DNA of 64,000 bases. It comes from Flectonema sp. DT1601 (lineage: Eukaryota). A program made the position numbers and the translations under genes. The stretch lies in contig OZ025784.1 of the NCBI GenBank assembly GCA_964019425.1, positions 744,001-808,000 of the forward strand, written 5' to 3'. Shown here piece after piece: positions 33,789 to 58,154 of the stretch. The number at the start of each line of letters is the position of its first letter. The first letter of the stretch is position 1. Below the pieces are notes generated by a model. The model did no database searches. It was given only the letters and a program-made list of their open reading frames with translations, and was not told where the DNA came from.

Positions 33789-33827
<39 letters not shown>

Positions 33828-34651
33828 TTATTATTTAAAAAAGGGAAACAATCAGTTTAGCGTCTCGATCAGGACGGAAAATAGAAATTAATCGACATAG
33901 TCGATCGATAGAAAAAAAACAATGATAACATTGTTTATTCTTTTTTTTTTTTTTTTTTTTTTATTTATTATTTAAAAAAGGGAAACAATCAGTTTAGCGT
34001 CTCGATCAGGACGGAAAATAGAAATTAATCGACATAGTCGATCGATAGAAAAAAAACAATGATAACATTGTTTATTCTTTTTTTTTTTTTTTTTTTTTTT
34101 ATTCTTTTTATTTATTTTTAAAGAAAAAACAATCAGTTTAGCGTCCTGACCAGGACGGAAAATTGAAAGTGATCGACATAGTCGATCGATAGAAAAAAAA
34201 CAATGATAACATTGTTTATTCCTTTTTTTTTTTTTTTTTTTTTTTATTCTTTTTATTTATTTTTAAAGAAGAAACAATCAGTTTAGCGACCTGACCAGGA
34301 CGGAAAATTGAAAGTGATCGACATAGTCGATCGATAGAAAAAAAACAATGATAACATTGTTTATTCTTTTTTTTTTTTTTTTTTTTTTTTAAATCCTTTT
34401 AATTATTTTAAAGAAAAAACAATCAGTTTAGCGTCTTGACCAGGGCGGAAAATAGAAAGTAATCGACATAGTCGATCGATAAAAAAAAAACAATGATAAC
34501 ATTGTTTATTCCTTTTTTTTTTTTTTTTTTTTTTTATTCTTTTTATTTATTTTTAAAGAAAAAACAATCAGTTTAGCGTCCTGACCAGGACGGAAAATTG
34601 GAAGTGATCGACATAGTCGATCGATAAAAAAACAATGATAACATTGTTTAT

Positions 34652-34686
<35 letters not shown>

Positions 34687-34798
34687 CTTTTAATTATTTT
34701 TTAAAGAAAAAACAATCAGTTTAGCGTCTTGACCAGGACGGAAAATAGAAAGTGATCGACATAGTCGATCGATAAAAAACAATGATAACATTGTTTAT

Positions 34799-34837
<39 letters not shown>

Positions 34838-35475
34838 CCTTTTTATTATTTTAAAGAAAAAACAATCAGTTTAGCGTCTTGACCAGGACGGAAAATAGAA
34901 AGTGATCGACATAGTCGATCGATAAAAAAAAAACAATGATAACATTGTTTATTCTTTTATTTTTTTTTTTTTTTAAATTCTTTTTATTTATTTTTAAAGA
35001 AAAAAAAACGGAAAATAAAAATTAGTCGACAAAGTCGAACGATAAAAAAAAAACAATGATAACATTGTTTATTCTTTTTTTTTTTTGTTTTTTTTTATTC
35101 TTTTTTATTAATTTTGAAAAAAAAACAATCAGTTTAGCGTCTTGACTAGGACGGAAAATAGAAAGTAATCGACATAGTCGATCGATAAAAAAAAACAATG
35201 ATAACATTGTTTACTCTTTTTTTTTTTTTTTTTAAATTCTTTTTATTTTAAAAAGAAAAAAAACGGAAAATAGAAATTAGTCGACAAAGTCGAACGATAA
35301 AAAAAAAACAATGATAACATTGTTTATTCTTTTTTTTTTATTTTTTTTTTTTTAATATTCTTTTTTATTAATTTTGAAAAAAAAACAATCAGTTTAGCGT
35401 CTTGACCAGGACGGAAAATAGAAAGTGATCGACATAGTCGATCGATAAAAAAAAAACAATGATAACATTGTTTAT

Positions 35476-35512
<37 letters not shown>

Positions 35513-35884
35513 CTTTTTTTTTTTTTAAAGAAAAAACAATCAGTTTAGCGTCTTGACCAGGACGGAAAATAGAAAGTAATCGACATAGTCGATCGATAAA
35601 AAAAACAATGATAACATTGTTTATTCTTTTTTTTTTTTTTTTAAATCTTTTTATTTATTTTTTAAAAAGAAAAAAAAAAAAACGGAAAATAGAAATTAGT
35701 CAACAACGTCGAACGATAAAAAAAAAACAATGATAACATTGTTTATTCTTTTTTTTTATTTTTTTTTGTATTCTTTTTTATTAATTTTGAAAAAAAACAA
35801 TCAGTTTTGCGTCTTGACCAGGACGGAAAATAGAAAGTGATCGACATAGTCGATCGATAAAAAAACAATGATAACATTGTTTAT

Positions 35885-35921
<37 letters not shown>

Positions 35922-36317
35922 CTTTTTATTATTTTTAAAGAAAAAACAATCAGTTTAGCGTCTTGACCAGGACGAAAAATAGAAAGTGATCGACATAGTC
36001 GATCGATAAAATAAAACAATGATAACATTGTTTATTCTTTTTTTTTTTTTTTTTTTTTTTTTAAATCCTTCTTTTTATTTTTTAGAGAAAAAACAATCAG
36101 TTTAGCGTCTTGACCAGGACGGAAAATAGAAAGTAATCGACATAGTCGATCGATAAAATAAAAACAATGATAACATTGTTTATTCCTTTTTTTTTTTTTT
36201 TTATTCTTTTTATTTATTTTTAAAGAAAAAACAATCAGTTTAGCGTCCTGACCAGGACGGGAAATAGAAAGTGATCGACATAGTCGATCGATAAAAAAAC
36301 AATGATAACATTGTTTA

Positions 36318-36348
<31 letters not shown>

Positions 36349-36462
36349 TTCTTTTTATTTATTTTTTAAAGAAAAAACATCAGTTTAGCGTCTTGACCAG
36401 GACGGAAAATAGAAATTAGTCGACAAAGTCGATCGATAACAAAACAATGATAACATTGTTTA

Positions 36463-36493
<31 letters not shown>

Positions 36494-36771
36494 TTCTTTT
36501 TATTTATTTTTTAAACATACTTGTACCCCTTTAAAGGGGGCAAAATAAAGGGGAAATTAAAGGGCTTTTAATGCCCTTTAATTTCCGTAATTCCAAAATA
36601 AAGGGGAAATAAAGGGCTTTTAATCCAAATAAAGGGCTTTTTTTCCTTTTTTTCCAAAATAAAGGGGAAATAAAGGGGAAATAAGCGGAATAAAGGGGGG
36701 TGGGAAAGCCCCTTTATTTCCGCTTTATTTATTAAATCCCAAGGCACCCACCACGCTGCGTCATCCTAAGT

Positions 36772-37797
36772 CGGAAAGGAAATTACTCGAAAGTCGGGGC
36801 AGTTCGAACGTCAGCATTCACATCAGCAAGCAACCAGTCCTGAGTACTTAAAGAACCCAACCATTACGTGGATCAGTCACAGTCACACTTAGTATAGCGT
36901 TAGTACAGAGGACACGGATCTGCTATGCAGGGAAGTGACTTGAACTCGTTCAACTAATTAATGTGTGTAGATATAAGCGCCGCGAATTGACGGGTCTGAA
37001 GTTATGCTTTCCGAAGAGAGCAACCACCCACGCGAGTGTTATTTTGACGCTATAACCTGTGACTTTCAACACGTAACAACCAGGGATAATTCTCAGTAAG
37101 GCCGCCGTCACCGTGAAGCTGCTACGAATATAACCCAACAAACTAGCAATTCCTCCAACCTTTTTCGTCAGTCGGGATTGTTACACGCCGGAAAAGGAAA
37201 CTACTCGAAAGTCGGGGCAGTTCGAACGTCAGCATTCACATTAGCAAACAACCAGTCTTGAGAACCCAATCATTACGTAACATGTAACAACCAGGGATAA
37301 TTCTCAATAAGGCCGCCGTCACCGTGAAGCTGCTACGAATAACAGTTCGAACGTCAGCATTCACATTAGCAAGCAACCAGTCTTGAGAACCCAACCATTA
37401 CGTGCATCAGCCACAGTTAACCTGCAACTTTCAACATGTAACAACCAGGGATAATTCTCAATAAGGCCGCCGTCACCGTGAAGCTGCTACGAATAACAGT
37501 TCGAACGTCAGCATTCACATTAGCAAGCAACCAGTCTTGAGAACCCAACCATTACGTGCATCAGCCACAGTTAACCTGCAACTTTCAACATGTAACAACC
37601 AGGGATAATTCTCAATAAGGCCGCCGTCACCGTGAAGCTGCTACGAATAACAGTTCGAACGTCAGCATTCACATTAGCAAGCAACCAGTCTTGAGAACCC
37701 AATCATTACGTAACATGTAACAACCAGGGATAATTCTCAATAAGGCCGCCGTCACCGTGAAGCTGCTACGAACATAACCCAACAAACTAGCAATTCC
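36772..37797. repeat. Internal tandem repeats (154-bp period and length variants) in the TIR element
   Basis: CAGTTCGAACGTCAGCATTCAC at about 36799, 37218, 37343, 37497 and 37651; AAGGCCGCCGTCACCGTGAAGCTGCTACGAA repeated 5 times. Confidence 0.85.
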
Positions 37798-39182
37798 ACT
37801 CACTTCGAACGCACTCAGCCAGAGAGCTTGCCAACAGAACAGAACGCAAGGTTACTTTCGGGTCCAATCTTCGCCGTGAGCCTGGTGTCTTGTGCTGGGC
37901 TGGGTTTCCAGAGGGCCTCACCATGCACACAAACTCCTGGATGGGACGATCGAGGGAATCAACCAAGCCGAGAACTGAACCGGAAGGATAGGCTTACAAG
38001 ACTAACCTGAAGTAAACTTCAGAGCTTCGCTTTCCAGCATGCCGAAACAGAGCCATGGAAGGGGATTACACAACAACCTCATTAAACCCACTGGCCACCC
38101 CGTGCATAGTCGCCGCCAATGGTTATTACTATCCAAAGCGCTAACACGAGGCACCACACATTCGTAAGAAGGGAGTCCTACCGGAACGGACCACGCATCT
38201 GATTCTACTGGTTAAAGCAACTCCGAAAGAATGTATTCTCCATGATTTCAGACATGTAACTTTTGGATATCATGCTCCTGTCTAATTGTTCCCACATAAG
38301 CTTTTGTCTTGAGAGATTGAAAATAAAGTTTGTAGTAATAGCCTAAAGAGAGGAGAAAGTTTTTATTTTAAAATTGCGAGAAAAAATGATGTCAAGTCAA
38401 ATTGACCAGGTATTTCTCTGACAATCTTGACTGTCAGCGGCAGCGTAGTAAATGACTGCAGATAAATAAATACCACGTGAACATAGTTGAGCACCACTTG
38501 CTTGATGTAACCGCAACAGTTTTTTATAAAACCCATGAGTATTTAATTAATAATTATATTGTCTTGAAAACTTGAAGGGGGTTAACTGTTGGATTTTATA
38601 CGATTCCTCTCAGCTGCATACACATCTCTTTTTTCCGTGTTGTCATTCAGTGCAGTACGGAATCGAGTTATTCAACTGTGAATTAATCACCAAGACGAAC
38701 ACCAGGAAGGGGGGCGTTTGAGTTTGATTTGTAAAATACAACTATATCATCATAACGATATTTAACATCATAAGGAAACCGCTAGCTACCATGCTGGTAA
38801 CTGACCAACTCAGTCAACTCACTAATCTTTGGCCACCGTTCCGACTTTCTTTCCTTTCACACCGACAGTCCTCTAACGGACTAATCACGTATCGAAAAAA
38901 ACAGCGAAGGTCGAGCAACTTAATACCTCGTGCCGAAATTCTTGTGAGGAACTCAAGAATTTTTGCTGAAAAAAAAATTTCCAAAAAAAAAATTCCTCAC
39001 AATAATAATTCCTTACCAGATCACCAAAGGAAACCCCCAGTAAAAATTTTTCCTTGATCAGGAATTATTTTTGTGGGAGAAGAATCTTGTGAAATAACGA
39101 TTTTTGAGGAGAAATTCCTTGCAAGGATAATTCCCGCAATAAGAATATAGGAAAGAAAATTAAAAAAAAACTTTTTTAAGTG

Positions 39183-39262
39183 ACGCTGGTTGTCCACTGG
39201 TATGATTGTGGATTTGCATTCGCTAGGCTGCAGGTTCGAGTCCTGGTGGAGGATTTTTTTTT
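39183..39262 (+). pseudogene. Degenerate tRNA-like sequence followed by oligo-T
   Basis: T-arm CAGG-TTCGAGT-CCTG (B box GGTTCGAGTCC), D-arm-like CACTGGTATGATT, imperfect anticodon stem with 6-nt loop, no good acceptor stem. Confidence 0.45.
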
Positions 39263-40931
39263 TAATTAAAAACCATTAAAAGCCCTTTATTTTTATTTTT
39301 CCAAATTAAAGGGGAATTAAATCCCCTTTAATTTTAAAATAAAGGGCCCTTTAATTCATTAAATCCCCTTTAATTCCCCTTTATTTCATTAAATTGGAAA
39401 ATAAAGGGGAATTAATTAAAAGCCCTTTAATATTAAAAGCCCTTTATTTCCGCTTTAATTTTTAATTCCCCTTTAAAGGGGTACAAGTATGTTTAAAGAA
39501 AAAACAATCAGTTTAGCGTCCTGACCAGGACGGAAAATAGAAAGTAATCGACATAGTCGATCGATAAAAAAAAACAATGATAACATTGTTTAATCTTTTT
39601 TTTTTTTTTTTTTTTTTTATTCTTTTTATTTATTTAGAAAAAACAATCAGTTTAGCGTCTTGACCAGGACGGAAAATAGAAATTAGTCGACAAAGTCGAT
39701 CGATAAAAAAACAATGATAACATTGTTTATTCTTTTTTTTTTTTTTTTTTTTTAAATTCTTTTTATTTATTTTTTAAGAAAAAAAAAACGGAAAATAGAA
39801 ATTAGTCGACAAAGTCGAACGATAAAAAAACAATGATAACATTGTTTATTCTTTTTTTTATTTTTTTTTTTTTTATTCTTTTTTATTAATTTTGAAAAAA
39901 AAAAAAACAATCAGTTTAGCGTCTTGACCAGGACGGAAAATAGAAAGTAATCGACATAGTCGATCGATAAAAAACAATGATAACATTGTTTATTCTTTTT
40001 TTTTTTTTTTTTTTTTTAAATTCTTTTTATTTATTTTTTAAGAAGAAAAACGGAAAATAGAAATTAGTCGACAAAGTCGAACGATAAAAAAACAATGATA
40101 ACATTGTTTATTCTTTTTTTTATTTTTTTTTTTTTATATTCTTTTTTATTAATTTTGAAAAAAAAAAAAAAAAAAAACAATCAGTTTAGCGTCTTGACCA
40201 GGACGGAAAATAGAAAGTAATCGACATAGTCGATCGATAAAAATACAATGATAACATTGTTTAATCTTTTATAATTTTTTATTTTTTTTTTTTGTTTTAA
40301 AAAAAAAAAAAAAAACAAGCGGAATTGATCATAATGGGTGGTAGGGGTTGTTATAACTTCGTTTGAAAATTCTTCTTTTTTGATTTCTTTTTTTTTTTCT
40401 TTTTATAGGAGTTAAGATCACTTTCAGGAGACAACACATGAACAAGAGCAGCAAGCAGAGTTGACACTATCAATTCAAATTTGAAATACCGGGAATTAAT
40501 TTACAAGGAGGTATCTCAAGTGACTTGGTATCTCTAGCGTGTCGGTATCTCTGGAGTGCTGGTATCTCGTATGTGCGTTGGTATCTCATGAGTGATGGTA
40601 TCTCTTGTGCATTAGAAAAACGAAAAAGAATGTCATGACCATGACGGAAGAATTGAGGAATTGAGTTAACATGTTCAATTTAACTTATTTAAACTTTTTT
40701 TTTTTTAAACAGACCGTAACTATTTGAAAATAAAATGTAGATGGGAAACAGTGAAAAGTAAATTGGATGATAAAATTAAATGAGAAATATGACATAACAG
40801 ACCAGATAGCGAGTATTAAAAGGAAATTGAAAAGGAAAAGAGAAACTAGGTTAACACTTATTTAAAATTAAGACCGGTTAGTCAGTTTAAGGTCTTGACT
40901 AGGACCAACAAAAAAGAAAGAAAAAAAAAAA

Positions 40932-41565
40932 TTAACGATCAAGCTGAGCTGATCTTGTTTTTATTACAAATAGGGGAGCGGGAGGGATGGAAGGAATAGA
41001 GGAAAAAAAAAGAAAAGGTTGATCAATTGGATCTGATCGTCGAGAAGAAGAAATTATTTTAAAGGTTGATCGGTATAGCCGATCGTTGAGAAAAATAAAC
41101 AGATATAAATACAATCAGTTTAAATTAAAAAAAGAAAAAAAGATTAACGATCAAGCTGAGCTGATCTTGTTTTTATTACAAATAGGGGAGCGGGAGGGAT
41201 GGAAGGAATAGAGGAAAAAAAAAGAAAAGGTTGATCAATTGGATCTGATCGTCGAGAAGAAGAAATTATTTTAAAGGTTGATCGGTATAGCCGATCGTCG
41301 AGAAAAATAAACAGATATAAATACAATCAGTTTAAATTAAAAAAAGAAAAAAAGATTAACGATCAAGCTGAGCTGATCCTGTTTTTATTTAAAATTAGGG
41401 GAGCGGGAGGGATGGAAGGAATAAAGGAAAAAAAAAAAAAAAAAAAAAAAGGTCGATCAATTGGATCTGATCGTCGAGAAGAAGAAAACAATTATTTATA
41501 AAAAAAAAAAATGGTCGGTATAGCCGATCGTTGAGAAAAGAACAGATATAAATACAATCGGTTTT
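40932..41565 (-). repeat. 212-bp tandem repeat (about 3 units) in the 3' tail of copy C
   Basis: TTAACGATCAAGCTGAGCTGATC at 40932, 41144 and about 41355. Confidence 0.9.
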
Positions 41566-41700
41566 GGTGATCGACGAGTGGAGCGATCACTTGACAAGAA
41601 GGAAAAAGAAAGGACCGATTAATTGGGGCTTTGATTGTATTCCCAAGGCATGTTTTTTTTTTTTTTTTTTTATTATTCAATACAATTTTTTTATTATTCA

Positions 41701-44700
41701 AAGAAAAAAAACAAATGTGCCCCTGGTCCCAATTGCATACCTTATGTTGTATGGAAAAAGGTCCCAACTTTTATGGAAGCACTTTACAAGGTATTAAAGA
41801 GAATTTTCGAACTCAAGGCCTATCCGGATAGTTGGGGCTTAGCATTTGTAACAATGCTCCCAAAGCCCAACTCCGATGGGAAAGACATCTCGAAAACGAG
41901 ACCGATAGCTGTGGGCAACTGCGACGGGAAAATTTTTAATACGGTTATTCAGGAAGCCGTCGCAAACCACACTCTTTCTAAATTTAATTTTCAAAAAGGC
42001 TTTAGGAAAGGTGTCTCTGGATGTATCGAACATGCCACGATCACCTCAGAGATTTTTAAAGAAGTGAAAGCTCTCCGGAAAAACCTAACAATTGTCTGGG
42101 TGGATTTGGCAGATGCTTTCGGCTCAGTCAAACATCAATTAATTTTCTTTGCTTTAAAATATTTCGGAATTCACGAAAGAATAATCGGTTTCTATAAAAG
42201 GTATTATTCCTCCATGCGCGTCCAAATCAGAGTTGGAGAAGGCCTGACGCCCACTATCCCTTTTGAAGTTGGTGTCTTTCAAGGCTGCGTTTCCTCCCCA
42301 ACCCTTTTTAATTTGGTATTCCAACTACTGCTCTTTTCCTTAGCAGTTCATCAACAGGAAGCCTACGAGTTTAACAATAAATCCCTCCAACTATTAGTTG
42401 CAGCTTTTGCTGATGATTTACAACTTACCACGTCATCAAAGGCGGGGGCAAAATTGCTAATCAAGTCGCTCGAACAGTTTCTTTCCTGGTCTCGTGGTAT
42501 GAAAGCGAAACCCCAGAAATGCATTGCCCACAGCTTTGTACAAGGGAAACCAGCTAACCCGGACCTGAAGATTAACAATGTTCCGATTACGAATCTCCAG
42601 GAAGCTGGAGAGTTCAAATACCTCGGGCGTTGGTTTGAGCCGAACGCCAAAGAACAGAAATTGCGAGAGCGCCTGACCACTTTTACCAGGAATTTTTTAA
42701 AAAAAGTCGACGCCATGCCACTATATGGGTCTCAGAAGGCTTGGTCTGTCCAACACTTGTTATTGTCAAGGTTAACATGGAGTTTAATGATCCATGACTT
42801 ATCTCTCCCTTTTGCCAAAAAAATGGACAAAATTATTAAACCTTTTTTGAAGAAATGGTGGGGATTTGTCCGCTCTGCGAACACAGTCATCCTTTTTACC
42901 GGTTCAAAGAACACTGTTGGTCTCAGACACAAAAGAGTTGAGACGCTATATAAACAAGCGCAATCAATTAAACTAGACATCCTCAGATCCTCACAGGACT
43001 CTGACATGCACGGTGTCTACAATGTTATTATGGAGAAATCGTCCAACTGGTCGAAAAAGTTTTCAGCTTCTGCTGAGTGGGAGCGCCTTATTAAGTTTTT
43101 TTCTTACCGTTCTCTTGCGAAGCAATCAGCTGGTCTTGGTCACCGATTGCGCGATCTACGTACTACTCGCCCCGATCTCCTTAAGCGTTTTGAAGTGGAA
43201 GCCACAGATGAACTACTGAACTCTTTGAATAAATTACAAGTCCAAGGTCAGTGGAAGGAGTGGTCTAAATGTATGATAAACGATTTCACCTGGAATAAGG
43301 TACTTAGGGAGGGAAATCCTGCCTATATCTCATTTCAACTGAAAGCGGTTACAAACACCCTCCCCTCACAAGATAATTTAAAGAGGTGGAACATCACCAA
43401 TGTGGACCAAAATTGTGTTTTGTGTGGCAAAGTGAATCCTACCCTCAGGCATGTCTTAACAGGCTGTCCTGTCTCTTTAACACAAGGGAGGTTCACGTGG
43501 CGTCACGACAGCGTTCTAAAACGCATTGTTATCTTCTTGGAAGAGTTGATAATAAAAGCCAACAAAAGAAAAGAAAACCTCCCGCCTCCCTCTCAAACTT
43601 TTTTAAAAACAGGGGAAAATAAACCCCTAGAAAGAATTTCTAAAGAGACAGGCGAACTTTCACTAGCGAATGATTGGGTCATCCTCGACGATGTCGGTGA
43701 TAACCGCCTAATTGTTCCTCTTGAAGTGTGCCATGTCTCGTCCTCTCTAAGACCAGACATTTTTATTTATTCTTTTTTTGCGAAAAGAGCACTGATTCTG
43801 GAGCTGACGTGTCCAAATGAAGATCGTTTCGAAACCTCTCATGTCTTAAAGGAAAAGAAATACCTAAAGCTAAGAGACTCGATCATCGCTAATGGCTTCG
43901 ACTGTAACATTTTTACTATTGAAGTTGGCGTACGAGGAAACATCTGCATGGACCAGCTGAACATCTGGACACGTCACATCGGTTCACCTTTAGCACCAAC
44001 AAAAGCTTTATTTTGTGAATGCACCAGAATCGCCAGACAGTGCTCATATGTTCTGTTCCAGACGAGGAACCTCCCCACGTGGCATTCAAGACCACTAATG
44101 CGCAGCATTAAAGAAGAACCTGCCACTGCAAGTTTTATAAAAGATGGTAAAGAAATCTTCCCTGTGGAAGAAGTCAAAATCCACAAAGTAACAAAACTGA
44201 AAACGATCGAAAAGCTCACCATTGAAAGATCGTGGCTTGAGAAATGTTTTATCTGGCAAACTTGTTACGCATCGGCTCTTTCTATTCTACTTATTGCCAA
44301 TGGTTCTTCCTCCCCGGCCCCTTCTGTTTTGTTAGATGAGGATGAGCTCACTGGACTCTCCTTGTCATTCTCTTCTATTTCTTCCATCTCTTTCCAGACT
44401 CCCCCACCTGAACTCATGTCAACGGGATCGCAAACACTTCCTGCTGATTTCGCTATAGTGATAAGAACTCAATCTGACATGGGTTCTCAAACCCCCTTGT
44501 ACAAAAAAAAAGAAGGAAAATTAAGGCTGAAACTTTCCTTGAAATGCCAGATTTTAGAAAACGAATTAGAGCAAATGAAAGAACGAATTTTTTATGTTCT
44601 ATTTTTATTTTACTTTAATGCGATGTCAGCCTCCCTCGAGAAAGACAAGCAGTTACTAAATGGATTACCTGTTGAGATCAAAGCTACCAACCAGGATCCA

Positions 44701-45777
44701 TCCTCACTTCCTCCTGCGCCCCCTGTTTTAATTATTGAAAAAGATAGAAAAGAATATGAACTTCTGGAAGGAGTAATTCAACGGTTAACAGCAGAACGCG
44801 ATGAATCGAAGACTTCTCTTTCTGCACTAGTTCGACAATATGACTTAGTGGAAGATTACAGGAAACGTGAGCTCGCAAATCTGACTCAGAGAGCAGACCT
44901 ATCGGAAATGGCGCTCTTTAATTACCATCAAAGGTTTGTTCTTCTGTCGAACGAATTGGAGACCAAATGTAATGAGGAAAGAGAAAGTAAAATAAGACTT
45001 TTCTATACTCAACAGGAGGTCGAGAGTTTGCGTGCCGCGCGTCCCCGTATGACCCACTTTAGTCAACAAGTTTCCCCCCGAACCCCCGTTCTGTATGAAT
45101 CTGTTGCTATGATGAAGATAGCAAAGAACTACCTCTCGCTCTTTACAACTACGAGTAGTCTTTTTACTCCTCTTATTAAACCCCTTATCCCTACCCTTAA
45201 TTATATCACCCCTCTTTGTCCTCTAGCCTCAATTCCTCCGACAATGCCGCAGAGTGAAGCTCTCGACCGCACGCCGACCAAGATTTTACGACAAGAGAGT
45301 CACGTTATCTCCGTTAAAGAGAATACACCTATTGCGAGACAATGGTCCGAGGGTAGGATTGACTTACTCGAGAACTACTGTCGAGCAGTAGATGACTCTC
45401 TCGAAACAAACGAGAAAGCGGCAGAGCTCTCAGAACAACTTCTGGATGCCCAACTTCGCCTCTCGGAGCTGAATCACCAACGGTGTACAACTCACGCAGA
45501 GCAGCTTGAGCAATCCATGATGTTAACGGGACTGGCGAGCGATTTAAATGCTCAACTCGCCTTGGCACGGTCTCAAATTGCGGCCCTGAAGTTCCAATTA
45601 GCTTCATGGGCAGAAGGTTTGAGTCCGCCAGACACAGAAGAACATGAGGAAAATGAAACTCCGCCGAGAAAGTCTGAGCGTTCAACTCTGAAAAAACGAA
45701 CCCCTCCATCAAGATATCGTTACAATCGAAGGAGATGTTCTGCTGATGACGTTCACGGTGACTCCACCCCCTTGTAA
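41701..45777 (+). CDS. Reverse transcriptase - CCHC knuckle - restriction-like endonuclease polyprotein with long C-terminal coiled-coil extension (5'-truncated, no native start)
   Basis: RT motifs APGPNCIP, RPIAV, QKGF, WVDLADAFGSV, GVFQGCVSSPTLF, FADD, FKYLG. C-x2-C-x8-H-x4-C knuckle (CVLC...H...C), then GRFTWRHDSVL, RPDI...ILELTCP and KEKKY. The ORF-track start at 41635 lies in the flanking copy C. Confidence 0.92.
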   Translation, partial: KKKNKCAPGPNCIPYVVWKKVPTFMEALYKVLKRIFELKAYPDSWGLAFVTMLPKPNSDGKDISKTRPIAVGNCDGKIFNTVIQEAVANHTLSKFNFQKGFRKGVSGCIEHATITSEIFKEVKALRKNLTIVWVDLADAFGSVKHQLIFFALKYFGIHERIIGFYKRYYSSMRVQIRVGEGLTPTIPFEVGVFQGCVSSPTLFNLVFQLLLFSLAVHQQEAYEFNNKSLQLLVAAFADDLQLTTSSKAGAKLLIKSLEQFLSWSRGMKAKPQKCIAHSFVQGKPANPDLKINNVPITNLQEAGEFKYLGRWFEPNAKEQKLRERLTTFTRNFLKKVDAMPLYGSQKAWSVQHLLLSRLTWSLMIHDLSLPFAKKMDKIIKPFLKKWWGFVRSANTVILFTGSKNTVGLRHKRVETLYKQAQSIKLDILRSSQDSDMHGVYNVIMEKSSNWSKKFSASAEWERLIKFFSYRSLAKQSAGLGHRLRDLRTTRPDLLKRFEVEATDELLNSLNKLQVQGQWKEWSKCMINDFTWNKVLREGNPAYISFQLKAVTNTLPSQDNLKRWNITNVDQNCVLCGKVNPTLRHVLTGCPVSLTQGRFTWRHDSVLKRIVIFLEELIIKANKRKENLPPPSQTFLKTGENKPLERISKETGELSLANDWVILDDVGDNRLIVPLEVCHVSSSLRPDIFIYSFFAKRALILELTCPNEDRFETSHVLKEKKYLKLRDSIIANGFDCNIFTIEVGVRGNICMDQLNIWTRHIGSPLAPTKALFCECTRIARQCSYVLFQTRNLPTWHSRPLMRSIKEEPATASFIKDGKEIFPVEEVKIHKVTKLKTIEKLTIERSWLEKCFIWQTCYASALSILLIANGSSSPAPSVLLDEDELTGLSLSFSSISSISFQTPPPELMSTGSQTLPADFAIVIRTQSDMGSQTPLYKKKEGKLRLKLSLKCQILENELEQMKERIFYVLFLFYFNAMSASLEKDKQLLNGLPVEIKATNQDPSSLPPAPPVLIIEKDRKEYELLEGVIQRLTAERDESKTSLSALVRQYDLVEDYRKRELANLTQRADLSEMALFNYHQRFVLLSNELETKCNEERESKIRLFYTQQEVESLRAARPRMTHFSQQVSPRTPVLYESVAMMKIAKNYLSLFTTTSSLFTPLIKPLIPTLNYITPLCPLASIPPTMPQSEALDRTPTKILRQESHVISVKENTPIARQWSEGRIDLLENYCRAVDDSLETNEKAAELSEQLLDAQLRLSELNHQRCTTHAEQLEQSMMLTGLASDLNAQLALARSQIAALKFQLASWAEGLSPPDTEEHEENETPPRKSERSTLKKRTPPSRYRYNRRRCSADDVHGDSTPL

Positions 45778-46261
45778 TTCTCTTTTTCCTTACTTTCACA
45801 TCACTTTGTTTAGTTAGTTTTTTAGCTTATTTATTATTTATTGTTCGTTTTTGTTTGTATTATTTTATCGATATGTTTATGTCCGTCAGATCATAACGTT
45901 AATCAGGTTAATTGTTAATTGTTAATTATAAATGGTCTAAACCCCAATCCAAGTTCCCAAGGCTTGGCATAGATTTGAGTGACGCCTTACTGGCCTCCTC
46001 ATCCTCTATGAGTGGTGAGGGGGCCAGCAATGGTTTTTTTTTTTTTTTTTTTTCTCTTATTTCTTTTTTTCTTTTTCTTTTACTCTAATATGAAATATTT
46101 TTGAACAAAATGTGATTATTAATTTAAAAAAAAAAAAAAAAAATAATAATGTAAATGAATAATAAAAAAAAAAAAAAAAAAAACATGCCTTGGGAATACA
46201 ATCAAAGCCCCAATTAATCGGTCCTTTCTTTTTCCTTCTTGTCAAGTGATCGCTCCACTCG

Positions 46262-46900
46262 TCGATCACCAAAACCGATTGTATTTATATCTGTTCTTTT
46301 CTCAACGATCGGCTATACCGACCATTTTTTTTTTATAAATAATTGTTTTCTTCTTCTCGACGATCAGATCCAATTGATCGACCTTTTTTTTTTTTTTTTT
46401 TCCTTTATTCCTTCCATCCCTCCCGCTCCCCTAATTTTAAATAAAAACAAGATCAGCTCAGCTTGATCGTTAATCTTTTTTTCTTTTTTTAATTTAAACT
46501 GATTGTATTTATATCTGTTTATTTTTCTCGACGATCGGCTATACCGATCAACCTTTAAAATAATTTCTTCTTCTCGACGATCAGATCCAATTGATCAACC
46601 TTTTCTTTTTTTTTCCTCTATTCCTTCCATCCCTCCCGCTCCCCTATTTGTAATAAAAACAAGATCAGCTCAGCTTGATCGTTAATCTTTTTTTCTTTTT
46701 TTAATTTAAACTGATTGTATTTATATCTGTTTATTTTTCTCAACGATCGGCTATACCGATCAACCTTTAAAAAAATTTCCTCTTCTCGACGATCAGATCC
46801 AATTGATCAACCTTTTCTTTTTTTTTTCCTCTATTCCTTCCATCCCTCCCGCTCCCCTATTTGTAATAAAAACAAGATCAGCTCAGCTTGATCGTTAAAT
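46262..46900 (+). repeat. 212-bp tandem repeat (about 3 units) in the 3' tail of copy D
   Basis: Reverse complement of 40932-41565; contains GATCGGCTATACCGATC hairpins. Confidence 0.9.
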
Positions 46901-47559
46901 TTTTTTTTCTTTCTTTTTTGTTGGTCCTAGTCAAGACCTTAAACTGACTAACCGGTCTTAATTTTAAATAAGTGTTAACCTAGTTTCTCTTTTCCTTTTC
47001 AATTTCCTTTTAATACTCTCTATCTGGTCTGTTATGTCATATTTCTCATTTAATTTTATCATCCATTTTACTTTTCACTGTTTCCCATCTACATTTTATT
47101 TTCAAATAGTTACGGTCTGTTAAAAAAAAAAAAAAAGTTTAAATAAGTTAAATTGAACATGTTAACTCAATTCCTCAATTCTTCCGTCATGGTCATGACA
47201 TTCTTTTTCGTTTCTCTAATGCACAAGAGATACCATCACTCATGAGATACCAACGCACATACGAGATACCAGCACTCCAGAGATACCGACACGCTAGAGA
47301 TACCAAGTCACTTGAGATACCTCCTTGTAAATTAATTCCCGGTATTTCAAATTTGAATTGATAGTGTCAACTCTGCTTGCTGCTCTTGTTAATGTGTTGT
47401 CTCCTGAAAGTGATCTTAACTCCTGTAAAAAGAAAAAAAAAAAGAAATCAAAAAAGAAGAATTTTCAAACGAAGTTATAACAACCCCTACCACCCATTAT
47501 GATCAATTCCGCTTGTTTTTTTTTTTTTTTTTTAAAACAAAAAAAAAAATAAAAAATTA

Positions 47560-48606
47560 TAAAAGATTAAACAATGTTATCATTGTATTTTTATCGATCG
47601 ACTATGTCGATTACTTTCTATTTTCCGTCCTGGTCAAGACGCTAAACTGATTGTTTTTTTTTTTTTTTCAAAATTAATAAAAAAGAATATAAAAAAAAAA
47701 ATAAAAAAAAGAATAAACAATGTTATCATTGTTTTTTTATCGTTCGACTTTGTCGACTAATTTCTATTCTCCGTTTTTTTCTTAAAAAATAAATAAAAAG
47801 AATTTAAAAAAAAAAAAAAAAAAAAAAGAATAAACAATGTTATCATTGTTTTTTTATCGATCGACTATGTCGATTACTTTCTATTTTCCGTTTTTTTCTT
47901 TAAAAATAAATAAAAAGAATAAAAAAAAAAAAAAAAGGAATAAACAATGTTATCATTGTTTTTATTTTATCGATCGACTATGTCGATTACTTTCTATTTT
48001 CCGTCCTGGTCAAGACGCTAAACTGATTGTTTTTTCTTTAAAAAATAAAAAGAAGGATTTAAAAAAAAGAAGAAAAAAAAAAAAAAGAATAAACAATGTT
48101 ATCATTGTTTTTTTATCGATCGACTATGTCGATCACTTTCTATTTTTCGTCCTGGTCAAGACGCTAAACTGATTGTTTTTTCTTTAAAAATAATAAAAAG
48201 GATTTAAAAAAAAAAAAAAAAAAAAAAAGAATAAACAATGTTATCATTGTTTTTTTATCGATCGACTATGTCGATCACTTTCTATTTTCCGTCCTGGTCA
48301 AGACGCAAAACTGATTGTTTTTTTTTCAAAATTAATAAAAAAGAATACAAAAAAAAATAAAAAAAAAAAGAATAAACAATGTTATCATTGTTTTTTTTTT
48401 TATCGTTCGACGTTGTTGACTAATTTCTATTTTCCGTTTTTTTTTTTTCTTTTTAAAAAATAAATAAAAAGATTTAAAAAAAAAAAAAAAAAGAATAAAC
48501 AATGTTATCATTGTTTTTTTTATCGATCGACTATGTCGATTACTTTCTATTTTCCGTCCTGGTCAAGACGCTAAACTGATTGTTTTTTCTTTAAAAAAAA
48601 AAAAAG

Positions 48607-48643
<37 letters not shown>

Positions 48644-49417
48644 ATAAACAATGTTATCATTGTTTTTTTTTTATCGATCGACTATGTCGATCACTTTCTA
48701 TTTTCCGTCCTGGTCAAGACGCTAAACTGATTGTTTTTTTTTTCAAAATTAATAAAAAAGAATATAAAAAAAAAAATAAAAAAAAAAGAATAAACAATGT
48801 TATCATTGTTTTTTTTTTTATCGTTCGACTTTGTTGACTAATTTCTATTTTCCGTTTTTTTTCTTTTTAAAATAAAAAGAATTTAAAAAAAAAAAAAAAA
48901 AAGAGTAAACAATGTTATCATTGTTTTTTTTATCGATCGACTATGTCGATTACTTTCTATTTTCCGTCCTGGTCAAGACGCTAAACTGATTGTTTTTTTT
49001 TCAAAATTAATAAAAAAGAATATAAAAAAAAACAAAAAAAAAAAGAATAAACAATGTTATCATTGTTTTTTTTTATCGTTCGACTTTGTCGACTAATTTT
49101 TATTTTCCGTTTTTTTTCTTTAAAAATAAATAAAAAGAATTTAAAAAAAAAAAAAAAAAAAGAATAAACAATGTTATCATTGTTTTTTTATCGATCGACT
49201 ATGTCGATCACTTTCTATTTTCCGTCCTGGTCAAGACGCTAAACTGATTGTTTTTTCTTTAAAATAATAAAAAGGATTAAAAAAAAAAAAAAAAAAAAAA
49301 AAGAATAAACAATGTTATCATTGTTTTTTATCGATCGACTATGTCGATCACTTTCTATTTTCCGTCCTGGTCAAGACGCTAAACTGATTGTTTTTTCTTT
49401 AAAAAATAATTAAAAGG

Positions 49418-49448
<31 letters not shown>

Positions 49449-49840
49449 ATAAACAATGTTATCATTGTTTTTTTATCGATCGACTATGTCGATCACTTTC
49501 AATTTTCCGTCCTGGTCAGGACGCTAAACTGATTGTTTTTTCTTTAAAAATAAATAAAAAGAATAAAAAAAAAGAAAAAAAAAAGGAATAAACAATGTTA
49601 TCATTGTTTTTTTTTTATCGATCGACTATGTCGATTACTTTCTATTTTCCGTCCTGGTCAGGACGCTAAACTGATTGTTTTTTCTTTAAAAATAAATAAA
49701 AAGAATAAAAAAAAAAGAAAAAAAAAAGGAATAAACAATGTTATCATTGTTTTTTATCGATCGACTATGTCGATCACTTTCTATTTTCCGTCCTGGTCAA
49801 GACGCTAAACTGATTGTTTTTTCTTTAAAATAATTAAAAG

Positions 49841-49873
<33 letters not shown>

Positions 49874-50126
49874 ATAAACAATGTTATCATTGTCTTTTTT
49901 CTATCGATCGACTATGTGGATCACTTTCAATTTTCCGTCCTGGTCAGGACGCTAAACTGATTGTTTTTTCTTTAAAAATAAATAAAAAGAATAAAAAAAA
50001 AAAAAAAAAAAAGGAATAAACAATGTTATCATTGTTTTTTTTCTATCGATCGACTATGTCGATTAATTTCTATTTTCCGTCCTGATCGAGACGCTAAACT
50101 GATTGTTTCCTTTTTTTAAATAATAA

Positions 50127-50160
<34 letters not shown>
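47560..50160 (+). repeat. ~120-bp palindromic satellite array of copy D
   Basis: Long and short unit types; ends with the variant CCTGATCGAGACGCTAAACTGATTGTTTCC before the cap. Confidence 0.9.
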
Positions 50161-50164
<4 letters not shown>

Positions 50165-50936
50165 ATCTCCCTGCTATCCTCATATCCCCACAATAATATT
50201 ATACCTTTTCATTTTCTCTTTCCTTTTCTGGTCTTTTTTTTTTCTTTTTTTCCTTTTTCATACAACGTTTTTTATTTATATTTTATTTTTTTTTTTTTTT
50301 TCATGTTTGATTATTTCCTCTTCATATTTTTTTTCTATTCTTTCTTTTTTTTTTTTTTTTTTTTTTTCTCTACCTCTCTCTTAATTCTGTTCGTTTCTTT
50401 GAAACGAAAATTCATTTGAATATTATTCCTTGGTCAGCAACCATCATTGTCGCCCTTTGGGCCTGTTAAAAAAAAAAAAAAAATAAAAAGAAAGTTTACG
50501 TCGGGAATAGGGCAGGAGCCAAAAGCTCCCAGTCCGTTACTTCCCACTTATCGAAATTCTTACATTATTATTTTTTTTTTTTTTTTTTAAATTAATAATC
50601 ACATTTTGTTCAAAAATATTTCATATTAGAGTAAAAGAAAAAGAAAAAAAGAATAAGAGAAAAAAAAAAAAAAAAAAAACCATTGCTGGCCCCCTCACCA
50701 CTCATAGAGGATGAGGAGGCCAGTAAGGCGTCACTCAAATCTATGCCAAGCCTTGGGAACTTGGATTGGGGTTTAGACCATTTATAATTAACAATTAACA
50801 ATTAACCTGATTAACGTTATGATCTGACGGACATAAACATATCGATAAAATAATACAAACAAAAACGAACAATAAATAATAAATAAGCTAAAAAAACTAA
50901 ATAAACAAAATGATGTGAAAGTAAGGAAAAAGAGAA

Positions 50937-51872
50937 TTACAAGGGGGTGGAGTCACCGTGAACGTCATCAGCAGAACATCTCCTTCGATTGTAACGATAT
51001 CTTGATGGAGGGGTCCGTTTTTTCAGAGTTGAACGCTCAGACTTTCTCGGCGGAGTTTCATTTTCCTCATGTTCTTCTGTGTCTGGCGGACTCAAACCTT
51101 CTGCCCATGAAGCTAATTGGAACTTCAGGGCCGCAATTTGAGACCGTGCCAAGGCGAGTTGAGCATTTAAATCGCTCGCCAGTCCCGTTAACATCATGGA
51201 TTGCTCAAGCTGCTCTGCGTGAGTTGTACACCGTTGGTGATTCAGCTCCGAGAGGCGAAGTTGGGCATCCAAAAGTTGTTCTGAGAGCTCTGCCGCTTTC
51301 TCGTTTGTTTCGAGAGAGTCATCTACTGCTCGACAGTAATTCTCGAGTAAGTCAATCCTACCCTCGGACCATTGTCTCGCAATAGGTGTATTCTCTTTAA
51401 CGGAGATAACGTGACTCTCTTGTCGTAAAATCTTGGTCGGCGTGCGGTCGAGAGCTTCACTCTGCGGCATTGTCGGAGGAATTGAGGCTAGAGGACAAAG
51501 AGGGGTGATATAATTAAGGGTAGGGATAAGGGGTTTAATAAGAGGAGTAAAAAGACTACTCGTAGTTGTAAAGAGCGAGAGGTAGTTCTTTGCTATCTTC
51601 ATCATAGCAACAGATTCATACAGAACGGGGGTTCGGGGGGAAACTTGTTGACTAAAGTGGGTCATACGGGGACGCGCGGCACGCAAACTCTCGACCTCCT
51701 GTTGAGTATAGAAAAGTCTTATTTTACTTTCTCTTTCCTCATTACATTTGGTCTCCAATTCGTTCGACAGAAGAACAAACCTTTGATGGTAATTAAAGAG
51801 CGCCATTTCCGATAGGTCTGCTCTCTGAGTCAGATTTGCGAGCTCACGTTTCCTGTAATCTTCCACTAAGTC
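50937..51872 (-). pseudogene. C-terminal ORF fragment of copy C
   Basis: Translation essentially identical to the last ~309 aa of the copy D ORF. Confidence 0.9.
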
Positions 51873-51873: not shown

Positions 51874-52890
51874 GTCTTTAACGTAGAAACGGAACAGAAA
51901 AAACGTGAACTATTGGAAAAAGAGAATCAACACCTGATCGCTGAATGTGATTTAGTGAAAAGTTCTCTTCTCTCATTAGTTCAAAGAACTAACTCTCTGG
52001 AGGAAAAAAGGACGAGCGAGCTGGCGCGACAATCACAAAGAGCGGACCACGCTGAAATGTTTTATTTCAACTTACAACAAAGGTTCATTCTATTAAACAA
52101 TGAATTAGAATCTAAGTGTAGGGACGAAACTGGAACAAAAATTCAACTCTATTTGTCTCAACAAGAGGTCGCAACATTGCGTGCTGGCCCTCAACTGTCC
52201 CATTTTTCCCAACAATTTTCCCCAACACCCCCTTTTTTATTCGAATCAACGTCCACGGTAAAGAATTATCGACTCCCTCTCATCGCAACAACCTATTACT
52301 CCTGGACTCCCAAACCCCGTCTTTCCTTTTTTTTTAAACCTCATTCTCCATTGATCACGTTCCCTTCTGAACTGTCTCAAAGTAGACTACTGGTATCGTC
52401 TTCTGCTCAAACGGAACAAGAAAAAGACAGTGCGGCGACCTCATCGACGGAAGATTCACCTATTGCGAGGCAATGGTCCGAAGGTAGACTCGATTTACTG
52501 GACAACTACTGTCAAGCGGTAAGTGACTCTCTCCAGACAAATGAGAAAGTGGCGCTGCTCTCGGAAAAACTAGTGGAAGAGCAACGTCGATGCTCCGAGT
52601 TGAGCTATCAACAGAAGACTATCCATAAAGAACAACTGGATCATTCCATGTTGTTGATGGAGATGGCCAGTGAGCTCTCTGAGCAACTCTATTTGGCAAA
52701 AGACCAAAACAGAGCTCTCAAATTTCAGTTACAAACATGGGCAAATGGTTTTAACCCACCCGAAAAGGAAGCGCAAGAAGAAAATGAGACCCCAAAGCGT
52801 CCGAGGGAGCGCCTATCACAAAAAAAGCGAACTCCACCCTCAACGAATCCTCATGATCGCAGAAGAATCTTTTTAGATGACGATTGCTAA
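51874..52890 (+). pseudogene. 5'-truncated ORF end of copy E: diverged paralogue of the coiled-coil extension
   Basis: Open frame from the junction; PIARQWSEGRLDLLDNYCQAVSDSLQTNEK vs PIARQWSEGRIDLLENYCRAVDDSLETNEK in copy D. Confidence 0.85.
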
Positions 52891-53370
52891 GTTCTAGTTT
52901 CTATTAGTATTAAATTATTTGTATTATTTTGTCGATATGTTTATGTCTGTCCGATCATAACGTCAATCAGATTAATTGTTAATTGTAATTGGTTTGAGCG
53001 CTTATCAAAAAAAAAAAAAAGCGAACTCCAACCTCAACGAACTTTCATGATCGCAGAAGAATCTTTTTAGATGACGATTGCTAAGTTCTAGTTTCTATTA
53101 GTATTTATTTATTTGTATTATTTTGTCGATATGTTTATGTCCGTCAGATCATAACGTTAATCAGATTAATTGTCAATTGTTAATTGTAAATGGTCTAAAC
53201 CCCAATCCAAGTTCCCAAGGCTTGGCATAGATTTGAGTGACGCCTTACTGGCCTCCTCATCCTCTATGAGTGGTGAGGGGGCCAGCAATGGTTTTTTTTT
53301 TTTTTCTCTTATTTCTTTTTTTCTTTTTCTTTTACTCTAATAGGAAATATTTTTGAACAAAATGTGATTA

Positions 53371-53405
<35 letters not shown>

Positions 53406-54167
53406 AATGAATAATAAAAAAAAAAAAAAAAAAAAAAACATGCCTTGGGAATACAACCAAAGCCCCAATTAATCGGTCCTTTCTTTTTTCCTTCTTGTCA
53501 AGTGATCGCTCCACTCGTCGATCACCAAAACCGATTGTATTTATATCTGTTCTTTTCTCAACGATCGGCTATACCGATCTTTTTTTTAAAAATAATTGTT
53601 TTCTTCTTCTCGACGATCAGATCCAATTGATCGACCTTTTCTTTTTTTTTCCTTTATTCCTTCCATCCCTCCCGCTCCCCTTATTTTAATAAAAACAAGA
53701 TCAGCACAGCTTGATCGTTAAACTTTTTTTATTTATTTATTTTTTTTTTTTTTTTATTTAAACTGATTGTATTTATATCTGGTTATTTTTCTCAACGATC
53801 GGCTATGCCGATCGACCATTAAAATAATTGTCTTCTTCTTCTCGACGACCAGATCCAATTGATCGACCTTTTCTTTTTTTTTCCTTTATTCCTTCCATCC
53901 CTCCCGCTCCCCTTATTTTAATAAAAACAAGATCAGCTCAGCTTGATCGTTATTTATTTATTTATTTATTTTTTTTTTTTTTTTGTTGGTCCTAGTCAAG
54001 ACCTTAAACTGACTAATCGGTCTTAACTTTAACTAAGTGAATGAACCCTTTCCGTTTTCCTTTTCCCTTTATTACTCTCTATCTGGTCTGTTATGTCATA
54101 AATCTCATTTAATTTTATCATTCATTTTAATTTTCACTGTTTCCCATCTACATTTTATTTTCAAATA

Positions 54168-55463: not shown

Positions 55464-55494
<31 letters not shown>

Positions 55495-58150: not shown

Positions 58151-58154
<4 letters not shown>

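Follow-up and report, generated by a model that had tools for sequence, protein, structure and literature searches.

An exchangeable predicted coiled-coil tail under purifying selection behind the endonuclease of an RLE-group retrotransposon

What does a retrotransposon protein gain from more than five hundred residues placed behind its endonuclease? Elements with a restriction-like endonuclease (RLE) are the simplest LINEs, and R2-derived gene-insertion tools are built on them; the usual, not strictly defining, arrangement of the group has the RLE at or near the C-terminus of the protein. To our knowledge, the accessory domains described for RLE elements lie upstream of the reverse transcriptase (RT). 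In the stretch of DNA analyzed here (the window, 64,000 nucleotides of Flectonema sp. DT1601, contig OZ025784.1), 564 residues follow the RLE instead.

An ORF scan of the window finds 1380 open codons on the + strand at 41635-45777. Given that the element copy is 5'-truncated at 41698, the initial 21 codons of this stop-to-stop frame are flank. The last residue of the RLE, W816 in the sequence LFQTRNLPTW, ends at 44082, which leaves exactly the 564 codons counted in the initial annotation. At the local base composition this run of open codons has a chance probability of about 2e-14, and the other five frames have 23-38 stops apiece across 44083-45774. The catalytic core comprises the following features.

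41860..42627, + strand: reverse transcriptase, ORF aa 76-331, with FADD at aa 258-261 (Pfam PF00078, E 4e-26)
43414..43467, + strand: CCHC zinc knuckle, C594, C597, H606 and C611, all four invariant (PF13966)
43501..44082, + strand: RLE, with RH 623-624, PD 707-708, E723, K739 and Y743, ending at W816 (invariant columns; fold match)

Judged from 94 aligned sequences, this copy included, the catalytic residues of RT, knuckle and RLE are intact, with both catalytic Asp of the RT, the knuckle and the RLE motifs RH, PD..E and KxxKY all invariant. The order of these motifs (CCHC knuckle, then RH, PD..E, KxxKY) is that defined in passages of PMC5678591. The best PDB matches of the RT are R2 (E 2e-32), and the model of the RLE region (pLDDT 85.7) matches the R2 fold with E 2e-35. 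The full-length protein is estimated at ~1740 aa, the copy in the window being without its N-terminus; the family protein P0129 shows N-terminal zinc fingers by eye, and Pfam at E 0.01 assigns it no family, the N-terminal Myb domain typical of the R2 clade included. By its sequence, the element is an RLE-group non-LTR retrotransposon with a single ORF, recently multiplied and present in high copy number.

The tail is part of the element. In each of the 28 family proteins with an RLE end the frame runs on into the tail, with no stop right after the RLE, and six of them hold the whole tail. The junction of RLE and tail is bridged by contigs from the public runs X1 and X3; runs X2 and X5 were not counted because X2 covers the RT only and X5 overlaps the junction by 30 letters. 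An assembly chimera was considered and is excluded by other contigs together with runs X1 and X3. Outside the element's own family, no homologue of the tail was found among 1.84 billion representatives, and none of the 19 matches in one search for a host paralogue, nor the 4 in another, was anything other than a copy of the element. Searches with the tail gave nothing above threshold in Pfam (PPP1R21_C below threshold, E 0.059), 0 matches in NCBIfam, keratin as best PDB profile (E 0.18) and, with a low-confidence model as query, vimentin as best Foldseek match (E 4.4); neither an RRM nor another recognizable RNA-binding domain was found by these four. Its look-alikes in the Atlas are generic eukaryotic coiled-coil clusters at 0.94-0.95, a weak resemblance with a recognition of 1572, under the 2300 mark, and a JGI metagenome scan with RLE plus tail returned 145 pattern matches and 0 relatives. 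The initial annotation had proposed an accessory module, and its presence in frame in family copies, the purifying selection described below and the lack of a match to another gene support this; a recently captured host gene free of constraint, which it had named as a contrary outcome, finds neither a host match nor a lack of selection.

The tail in this frame (tail A, 44083..45777) can be divided as follows; identities refer to a second version, tail B.

44083..44280, + strand: segment 1, aa 817-882, predicted helix with the first, weakly hydrophobic stretch
44281..44514, + strand: acidic linker rich in Ser/Thr, aa 883-960; contains two GSQT motifs; copies vary most here
44506..44661, + strand: predicted helix CC0, aa 958-1009, heptad-like, with the second hydrophobic stretch (structure model)
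44734..45039, + strand: predicted helix CC1, 102 residues, aa 1034-1135 (structure model, pLDDT 45-78)
45070..45324, + strand: Pro/Ser/Thr-rich linker, aa 1146-1230, where A/B identity is lowest (34%)
45328..45612, + strand: predicted helix CC2, 95 residues, aa 1232-1326, the best-conserved part of the tail (60%; model, pLDDT 52-80)
45640..45777, + strand: disordered C-terminus, acidic and then basic, whose TP sites (ETP-x-R, KKRTPP, RRR) are conserved in A and B; includes the stop codon

The hydrophobic stretches, E/L/Q-rich helices, Pro/Ser/Thr linker and basic tail noted initially are thus all present as quoted. The model predicts long helices, with 52, 102 and 95 residues, and nothing globular, at low confidence (mean pLDDT 41.5, pTM 0.19, 10 shallow alignment rows), and heptad patterns occur at corresponding places in tails A and B. 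CC1 and CC2 have net charges of -2 and -9, which makes them neutral to acidic. The basic end with its TP sites is presumably a nuclear localization signal with CDK sites; five of the ten Ser/Thr-Pro sites in A align with one in B, but at 51% identity this number does not clearly exceed chance. The two GSQT motifs, and TETQS/TETQT in the older variant P0161, are candidate LC8/DYNLL anchors of the TQT type, and the second GSQT is flanked by the favored Asp at -4 and Pro at +2. The EFL1 peptide containing MCTGSQTF, much like the first GSQT, is a non-binder (PMC6607443).

Tails A and B (51874-52890) follow a near-identical RT-RLE. The RLE and the first 77 residues of the tail are common to both, save for one Ser inserted in B near aa 882, and the crossover lies just after CC0. 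The DNA junction is present in run X1, where a contig links the shared part to tail B; B was found in this one of four runs, stretches without coverage being uninformative. Over 336 codons the two tails share 51% amino acid identity, with codon-position identities of 0.68/0.70/0.45 and a dN/dS of ~0.19 (bootstrap pN/pS 0.36-0.51), obtained from a codon alignment guided by the protein alignment and with dS near saturation (1.95). The ratio is 0.21 over aa 1045-1150, 0.17 over aa 1226-1340 and ~0.2 in each of four tail segments, with no positive selection seen. In the DNA alignment two of eight gaps are multiples of three, at a divergence too high to inform. These ratios indicate that the tail is under purifying selection, and together with the 51% identity they suggest that it is an old constrained cassette swapped by recombination. 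Compared with the window, copies differ at 0.16-0.20% of residues in aa 331-816 versus 5.1% in aa 883-1010, figures that leave out aa 1231-1335 because B-type stretches leaked into that row.

The window also reveals how the element inserts, through several copies nested in one another.

41698..50559, + strand: 5'-truncated tail-A copy, 8.86 kb (ORF and 4.78 kb of 3' UTR), inside an older antisense copy
45778..50559, + strand: 3' UTR of this copy, with fixed terminal base 50559
near 45984-46034, + strand: 3' UTR hairpin (z -3.1)
46126-46183, + strand: A-rich tract of the 3' UTR
46272-46917, + strand: 212-bp repeats of the 3' UTR
47539-50160, + strand: 140-bp repeats of the 3' UTR
to 50559, + strand: terminal 400-bp module of the 3' UTR, stopping at the fixed base (seven aligned ends)
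51874..58553, + strand: another 5'-truncated copy inside the same older one, shorter and with tail B (coding up to 52890), its 3' UTR 5.66 kb long
58555..59064, - strand: older tail-A copy, 5' piece, matching 44333-44842 (99.6% over 510 bp)
50560..51872, - strand: older tail-A copy, middle piece, matching 44842-46154 (99.5% over 1314 bp)
33393..41679, - strand: older tail-A copy, part of the 3' UTR reaching as far as the fixed 3' end, split by ~3 kb of other DNA at 36515-39490

All seven 3' ends coincide to within a few bases, the three 5' truncation points are all different, and terminal repeats are absent. The copies therefore carry the signature of TPRT. Insertions are blunt and into older copies of the element, and the older host copy itself sits in a 1396-bp tandem repeat. 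No shared motif is evident in the flanks past the seven ends, a small sample, which suggests that the choice of region is not set by a fixed target sequence. Rfam at its gathering score gave no match in 22000-64000, and neither Rfam nor ARAGORN found an RNA-gene insertion target in the region; the targets are the element itself and local repeats, not rDNA. Four common telomere motifs are absent as doublets. Apparent terminal inverted repeats of a DNA transposon (39500-41698 versus 46134-48300) proved to be the 3' UTR of the older antisense copy.

About 75 relatives were found at 30-36% identity. That the RLE normally lies near the C-terminus, as first assumed, holds for the 98 relatives whose RLE end is reached: the median tail is 23 aa, with exceptions longer than 100 aa in 16 and longer than 500 aa in one. 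The nearest relative, P0003, has a 78-aa tail, and since it and most other relatives are without such a tail, the tail is not required for TPRT as such. A DarT domain follows the RLE in five relatives and a ubiquitin protease in one, indicating that this position accepts accessory modules; the element's tail has no similarity to 22 relatives' tails (best E 0.16). In a tree that holds no labelled HERO sequence, the element groups with other relatives, apart from oomycete RNase-H-bearing and Nephila 'R2'-named proteins, and by its motif pattern we tentatively take it to be of the HERO-like branch. The tail B of the same window, the long 3' UTR and the relatives' DarT and ubiquitin-protease domains at the same position had been missed by the initial annotation.

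With the HERO-like branch the element shares a single ORF, N-terminal zinc fingers, RT, CCHC knuckle and RLE; it differs in its 564-aa constrained tail, its repeat-bearing 3' UTR of 4.8-5.7 kb and its estimated full length of ~1740 aa. HERO elements are marked by a lax choice of target or by insertion into microsatellites. A further likeness is that no fixed target sequence is evident in its seven flanks, as is described for many HERO families in part of PMC4640811. The RT-thumb-linker-knuckle-RLE fold is that of R2 (PDB 9DOU, 9NL2, 9NL3 and 8GH6; Foldseek E 2e-35 to 2e-28, TM 0.62-0.66), as are the catalytic motifs, the 5'-truncated copies and the blunt junctions, whereas identity to R2 is only 17-21% and the element is not in the 28S rDNA site. 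The R2 protein terminates with the RLE region, according to passages of PMC13580325 and PMC12503042. Utopia and NeSL are likewise RLE elements with added domains (Ulp1 protease and RNase H, in sections of PMC4640811), but theirs lie upstream of the RT and the RLE stays C-terminal. Unusually long 3' UTRs and clusters of own copies are also known from Drosophila TART/HeT-A (excerpts of PMC1636488), which form head-to-tail arrays at chromosome ends, while the copies described here nest internally and in both orientations. LINE-1 ORF1p resembles the predicted structure of the tail in having a coiled coil encoded by the retrotransposon itself, one that differs between families existing side by side and passes between them through recombination; in mouse L1 the ORF1 coiled coil mediates trimers and has moved between families by recombination (as described in part of PMC3600994). 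ORF1p is, in contrast, a separate upstream protein with RRM and CTD, whereas the helices here are fused C-terminal to the endonuclease, and neither Pfam, PDB profiles nor Foldseek match the tail to ORF1p.

The reading that we favor, tentatively and at somewhat less than even confidence, is that the constrained, exchangeable 564-residue predicted coiled-coil tail assembles the protein into oligomers on the RNA that encodes it and carries it to the nucleus, like ORF1p but fused behind the endonuclease. Of the functions offered in the initial annotation, multimerization would agree with the predicted structure. By analogy with the R2 mechanism, the RLE would nick DNA and the RT would copy the RNA from its fixed 3' end, often stopping early. 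CC1 and CC2 would pair between protein molecules, giving a scaffold that may hold RT-RLE on the RNA, which would span ~10 kb or more and have its 3' end 5 kb away from the stop codon. Nuclear import could be regulated through the basic end and its conserved TP sites. As for tail B, the present RT-RLE likely acquired it from an older family, through gene conversion or a template switch. The nucleic-acid chaperone properties of ORF1p would be missing from the tail, since it has no recognizable RNA-binding domain and its main helices are neutral to acidic. Alternatively, the helices may partner with a protein of the host or fold onto one another, without pairing between molecules.

Binding of a host protein leads to other explanations. 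As a tether to a chromosomal or nuclear scaffold protein of the host, the coiled coils may direct insertion to repeat-rich islands, which would be why copies pile up inside one another and in neighboring repeats. Self or chromatin targeting, also offered in the initial annotation, would agree with the nested insertions. Two copies lying inside an older copy that is itself inside the 1396-bp tandem repeat agree with this, as do predicted proteins on other contigs that join the element's own 3' end (in both orientations), the 140-bp repeat and the 1396-bp repeat, and the independence of region choice from a fixed target sequence at the seven ends. Nonetheless, the nesting comes from one window, the junction proteins are a biased sample, and selection against genic insertions also yields clustering, so we consider such steering possible but rather unlikely. 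A broader version, in our view doubtful, sees the post-RLE position in this branch of RLE elements as a plug-in slot filled independently with host-interaction modules (a DarT DNA ADP-ribosyltransferase, a ubiquitin-specific protease, a coiled coil), with the exchangeable cassette, in two alleles, linking the integration complex to repeat islands made by the element itself out of its 3' UTR satellite arrays. The same relatives' domains, which act on host molecules, also speak for counter-defense: the tail would bind a silencing or restriction factor of the host or act as a decoy for it, and both versions would be retained because each escapes a different host state. The existence of two tails only 51% identical on a single nearly invariant core, the excess of differences among copies in aa 883-1010 and the arms-race reading of the primate L1 coiled coil in parts of the literature are in line with it; dN/dS is ~0.2 in all four segments with no positive selection seen, and the A/B mosaic is also expected neutrally, since recombination can draw on the plentiful 3' halves left by old 5'-truncated copies. 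We regard counter-defense as unlikely.

The remaining explanations deny the tail any present use or place it in a membrane. The tail could be a coiled-coil gene of the host, or a once independent downstream ORF, that was joined on when a stop codon was lost; it would be useless to the element now, its constraint dating from an earlier life. Constraint is not measurable in aa 817-882, which are the same in A and B, an in-frame Met lies six codons past W816, P0161 is called as a separate short protein, and host lineages are poorly sampled. This reading is already weakened, and is very unlikely in our estimation: the paralogue searches returned element copies only, both tails are in frame with the RT across multiple near-identical copies, and the Met aligns with the relatives' conserved 'W..x-R-x-L-L' ending. 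Membrane association, suggested in the initial annotation, would mean that the two apolar stretches cross a membrane and so anchor the protein to the ER or the nuclear envelope. Their Kyte-Doolittle maxima in a 19-residue window are 1.40 for the first and 1.14 for the second (1.03 in B), under the usual transmembrane cut-off of at least 1.6, both sit within long continuous predicted helices with a heptad pattern, and the second is encoded by T-rich DNA and is missing from P0161; a membrane anchor is therefore the least credible proposal.

An element with a module of 560 residues behind its RLE has thus still multiplied, and the module is exchangeable on an unchanged catalytic core, at the same spot where relatives place enzymes. 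This suggests the C-terminus as a natural place to fuse targeting or effector domains. With tails A and B at hand, a comparison of A, B and a deletion would address what a coiled coil does for a LINE without ORF1. The kilobases of satellite DNA within the 3' UTR of this LINE also show one route by which satellites spread.

The + frame 41635-45777 contains 1380 open codons, in which Pfam assigns aa 76-331 to the RT and aa 549-614 to zf-RVT. The RLE ends at W816 and is followed by 564 further codons, confirming the long open extension that the initial annotation had described. Over this tail each of the other five frames contains 23-38 stops, and the chance probability of an open run of this length is approximately 2e-14. 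The RT Asp pair, the CCHC knuckle and the RLE residues RH, PD, E, K, and Y (motif definitions as in PMC5678591) are invariant in a 94-sequence alignment and are all present in the window copy. The predicted structure of aa 26-919 has a mean pLDDT of 85.7, falling below 50 from about 10 residues past W816, and its best structural matches are R2 structures (E 2e-35, TM 0.65). The presence of the invariant residues, together with the fall in pLDDT soon after W816, indicates that the core is intact and that the tail is appended to it, outside its fold.

The protein search recovered the element as two clusters, of 235 and 47 near-identical copies (15 listed for each, those listed all from ENA). The 64 family proteins collected are a biased set, given that part of them was retrieved with the tail as query. 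The RLE end is present in 28 and all 28 continue in frame, so that the stop right after the RLE, envisaged by the initial annotation as speaking against the tail, is found in none of them. The tail reaches at least 50 residues in 25 and is whole in 6, while the three short-tailed proteins switch to other DNA after 5, 27, and 31 residues, which in two of the three is recognisable element repeats or the element 3' end. The database protein P0001 departs just upstream of the RLE end, into the terminal module of the element. In the cluster with a tail-less representative, all 8 RLE-end proteins among the 15 members listed extend by at least 125 residues. In public sequencing runs, an X1 contig spans 41720-44467, differing once, and one from X3 reaches 45 bases across the RLE-tail junction; X2 contigs contain the RT only and the X5 overlap at the junction is 30 bases. 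Junction support was counted in two of these four runs (X1 and X3), one of which may be the source sample. Element DNA is found in runs X1-X10, from ten studies of ten differently labelled organisms, with over half of its words in five and a low read depth where aligned. This spread could reflect a host that commonly accompanies or contaminates other organisms, or movement of the element from one host to another.

The arrangement of the window is as follows.

399-22379 (-): tandem array of three genes, the product being a Cys-rich type I membrane protein that has a signal peptide, a 34-aa repeat (x38-48) and W-C-C motifs
23691-24660, 26400-26995, 27741-30838, 59535-63196 (both orientations): further truncated 3' UTR pieces, with 140-bp arrays and the terminal module
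24700-26400: degraded DDE-transposase-like stretch (by eye)
30881-33390, 59064-59534, 60977-61553: 1396-bp tandem repeat, a repeated target of element insertion
33393-59064: nest of element copies, resolved by module mapping and junctions
36515-39490: about 3 kb of other DNA within the 140-bp array of the older copy, with a 154-bp tandem repeat at 37279-37711
39185-39255: degenerate tRNA-like stretch, no ARAGORN call
41698-50559 (+): tail-A copy
51874-58553: tail-B copy, with its tail at 51874-52890
52820-53186: stop region of the tail-B copy duplicated (194 bp), the units parted by an A-run
63188-63805 (+): ORF with a weak B-box/ZZ zinc-finger match (E 0.005)

The Cys-rich protein has paralogues on other contigs and homologues in EukProt transcriptomes at 45-57%, which points to a protist as the host, possibly a diplonemid-like one. 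The 63188-63805 ORF and the 24700-26400 stretch are probably other mobile elements, and much of the 140-bp satellite of the window appears to be element-borne.

The nest is built on an older tail-A copy in antisense orientation, whose truncation point corresponds to 44333; this copy was inserted into the 1396-bp repeat with one base lost. Both younger copies lie inside it in opposite orientation, the tail-A copy with one base lost and about 20 bases of 5'-side filler, and the tail-B copy with about one base duplicated. The fact that every inserted unit starts within the ORF and ends at the same terminal base means that the 4.78 and 5.66 kb past the stops are 3' UTR; these carry 212-bp and 140-bp repeats. 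Seven element 3' ends in the window agree in position to within a few bases when aligned, with unrelated sequence beyond and an A-run after one. A constant 3' end, differing 5' truncation points and blunt insertion junctions are the expected products of target-primed reverse transcription by RLE elements, and the nested copies show this pattern. Adding P0129 and P0001, which supply N-terminal pieces, gives a full protein of approximately 1740 aa, and the element RNA would therefore be approximately 10 kb or more. Two proteins from other contigs, P0134 and P0160, have their junction with the 1396-bp repeat at one shared codon and differ in 5' truncation, a hint of a preferred site.

The two tails share one core. 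In the whole protein P0134, no difference from the window copy is seen in the RLE and the first 77 residues of the tail; whole proteins of this type differ slightly over aa 883-1010 and drop to half identity from about aa 1010, and a 762-base X1 contig links the shared part to tail B. Tails A and B are 51% identical over 336 aligned codons (0.68, 0.70, and 0.45 by codon position), with dN 0.38, dS 1.95 and dN/dS 0.19 (0.17-0.22 in each of four segments); dS is near saturation, and the uncorrected pN/pS is nevertheless well under 1 (0.36-0.51). The tail search gave 19 matches among 1.84 billion representatives and a second search with tail B gave 4, all of them element pieces by sequence, and neither search returned a homologue outside the family. 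These matches and the A/B ratio do not fit a captured host gene without constraint, the other objection foreseen at the outset. The 3' UTRs of the two copies are 77-96% alike in five blocks, much more than the silent sites of the tails, and the tail thus behaves like an old cassette within homogenised flanks. The database protein P0161, with 43% identity across tail residues 85-198, looks like an older B-type form of aa 883-1020. Residue differences between copies and the window amount to 0.16-0.20% over aa 331-816, 5.1% over aa 883-1010 and approximately 1.6% over aa 1011-1230. We infer that the catalytic core spread recently and acquired older tails by recombination, after which both versions multiplied. 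The second unit of the 194-bp duplication corresponds to an older variant of type B, represented by P0142 and P0159; this suggests that the 3' end was once short and carried poly(A), and that a template switch took place.

Among the relatives, the protein search gave 115 matches, 98 of which reach the RLE end (two family representatives excluded). Their median tail of 23 aa bears out the expectation that the RLE usually lies near the C-terminus; 16 tails exceed 100 aa, one having 601 aa. A domain scan of these 16 found DarT after the RLE in five (E 2e-12 to 4e-23), a ubiquitin-specific protease in one (E 3e-35) and nothing named there in 10, and none of 22 relatives' tails compared resembles the window tail. 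In the RT tree (FastTree, 106 sequences, rooted on APE-bearing matches, matches covering <60% of the profile omitted), the nearest relative is P0003 (support 0.97), with a tail of 78 aa, and the relatives bearing DarT or the protease fall on other branches. This distribution would imply at least three independent gains of modules after the RLE. DarT, an ssDNA ADP-ribosyltransferase (Pfam PF14487, E down to 4e-23), is carried by P0006, P0037, P0078, P0079, and P0081; the Q-[AG]-E-V-L motif is reached in four, P0081 ending too early. The DNA locus L001:2273-3859 holds a sixth DarT-linked RLE copy, whose reading frame is shifted within the final helix of the RLE. In P0078 the last 390 aa, past DarT, form another unnamed region, partly globular-looking, and P0059 (cluster of 6) has a complete protease domain (PF00443) at aa 1060-1343.

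The low-confidence model of the tail (pLDDT 41.5) places helices at tail residues 29-72, 142-193, 218-319, 339-357, and 416-510 and shows no globular domain. Heptad-like patterns occur at corresponding places of tails A and B, and the C-terminal end is acidic and then basic, with ETP-x-R, KKRTPP, and RRR common to both; this end is a putative nuclear-import signal beside CDK-type sites. Two GSQT motifs N-terminal of the first predicted coiled coil resemble LC8-binding sites. In PMC6607443 a peptide much like this motif did not bind LC8, and LC8 binding by the tail is only a lead.

The reading we favour, tentatively and at somewhat under even chances, is that the tail would play a fused ORF1p-like role: the long predicted helices CC1 (aa 1034-1135) and CC2 (aa 1232-1326) would oligomerise the element protein on its own RNA, which would be helpful with an RNA 3' end 5 kb past the stop, and the basic end would carry the protein into the nucleus. 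Mouse L1 offers a parallel, since the accessible parts of PMC3600994 and PMC7449397 describe an ORF1 coiled coil that forms trimers and has been passed between families. Three points speak against this role: the tail shows no RNA-binding domain, its helices lack a basic character, and most relatives do not have it.

A tether to host chromosomal scaffolds is a distinctly weaker candidate and a counter-defence module is less likely again; both are compatible with the other readings rather than exclusive of them. That the tail is a mere passenger is improbable. Least probable of all is a membrane anchor, as the initial annotation had suggested from two hydrophobic stretches: they reach a hydropathy of 1.40 and 1.14, and P0161 lacks the second stretch, which makes membrane association unlikely.

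The element has all tested features of the RLE group except the usual C-terminal position of the RLE, and it falls outside R2, the rDNA target being absent. In the published RLE elements covered by the available text of PMC4640811, PMC13580325, and PMC12503042, the RLE is C-terminal and accessory domains lie upstream of the RT. No published report of a coiled coil or DarT behind the RLE was found, and such elements may be present in Repbase Reports or in the inventory of Fell et al. 2025 with its supplements. An RLE followed by a constrained tail is a real and apparently undescribed architecture within a known class, and the DarT-RLE fusions are possibly more striking than the coiled-coil tail itself.
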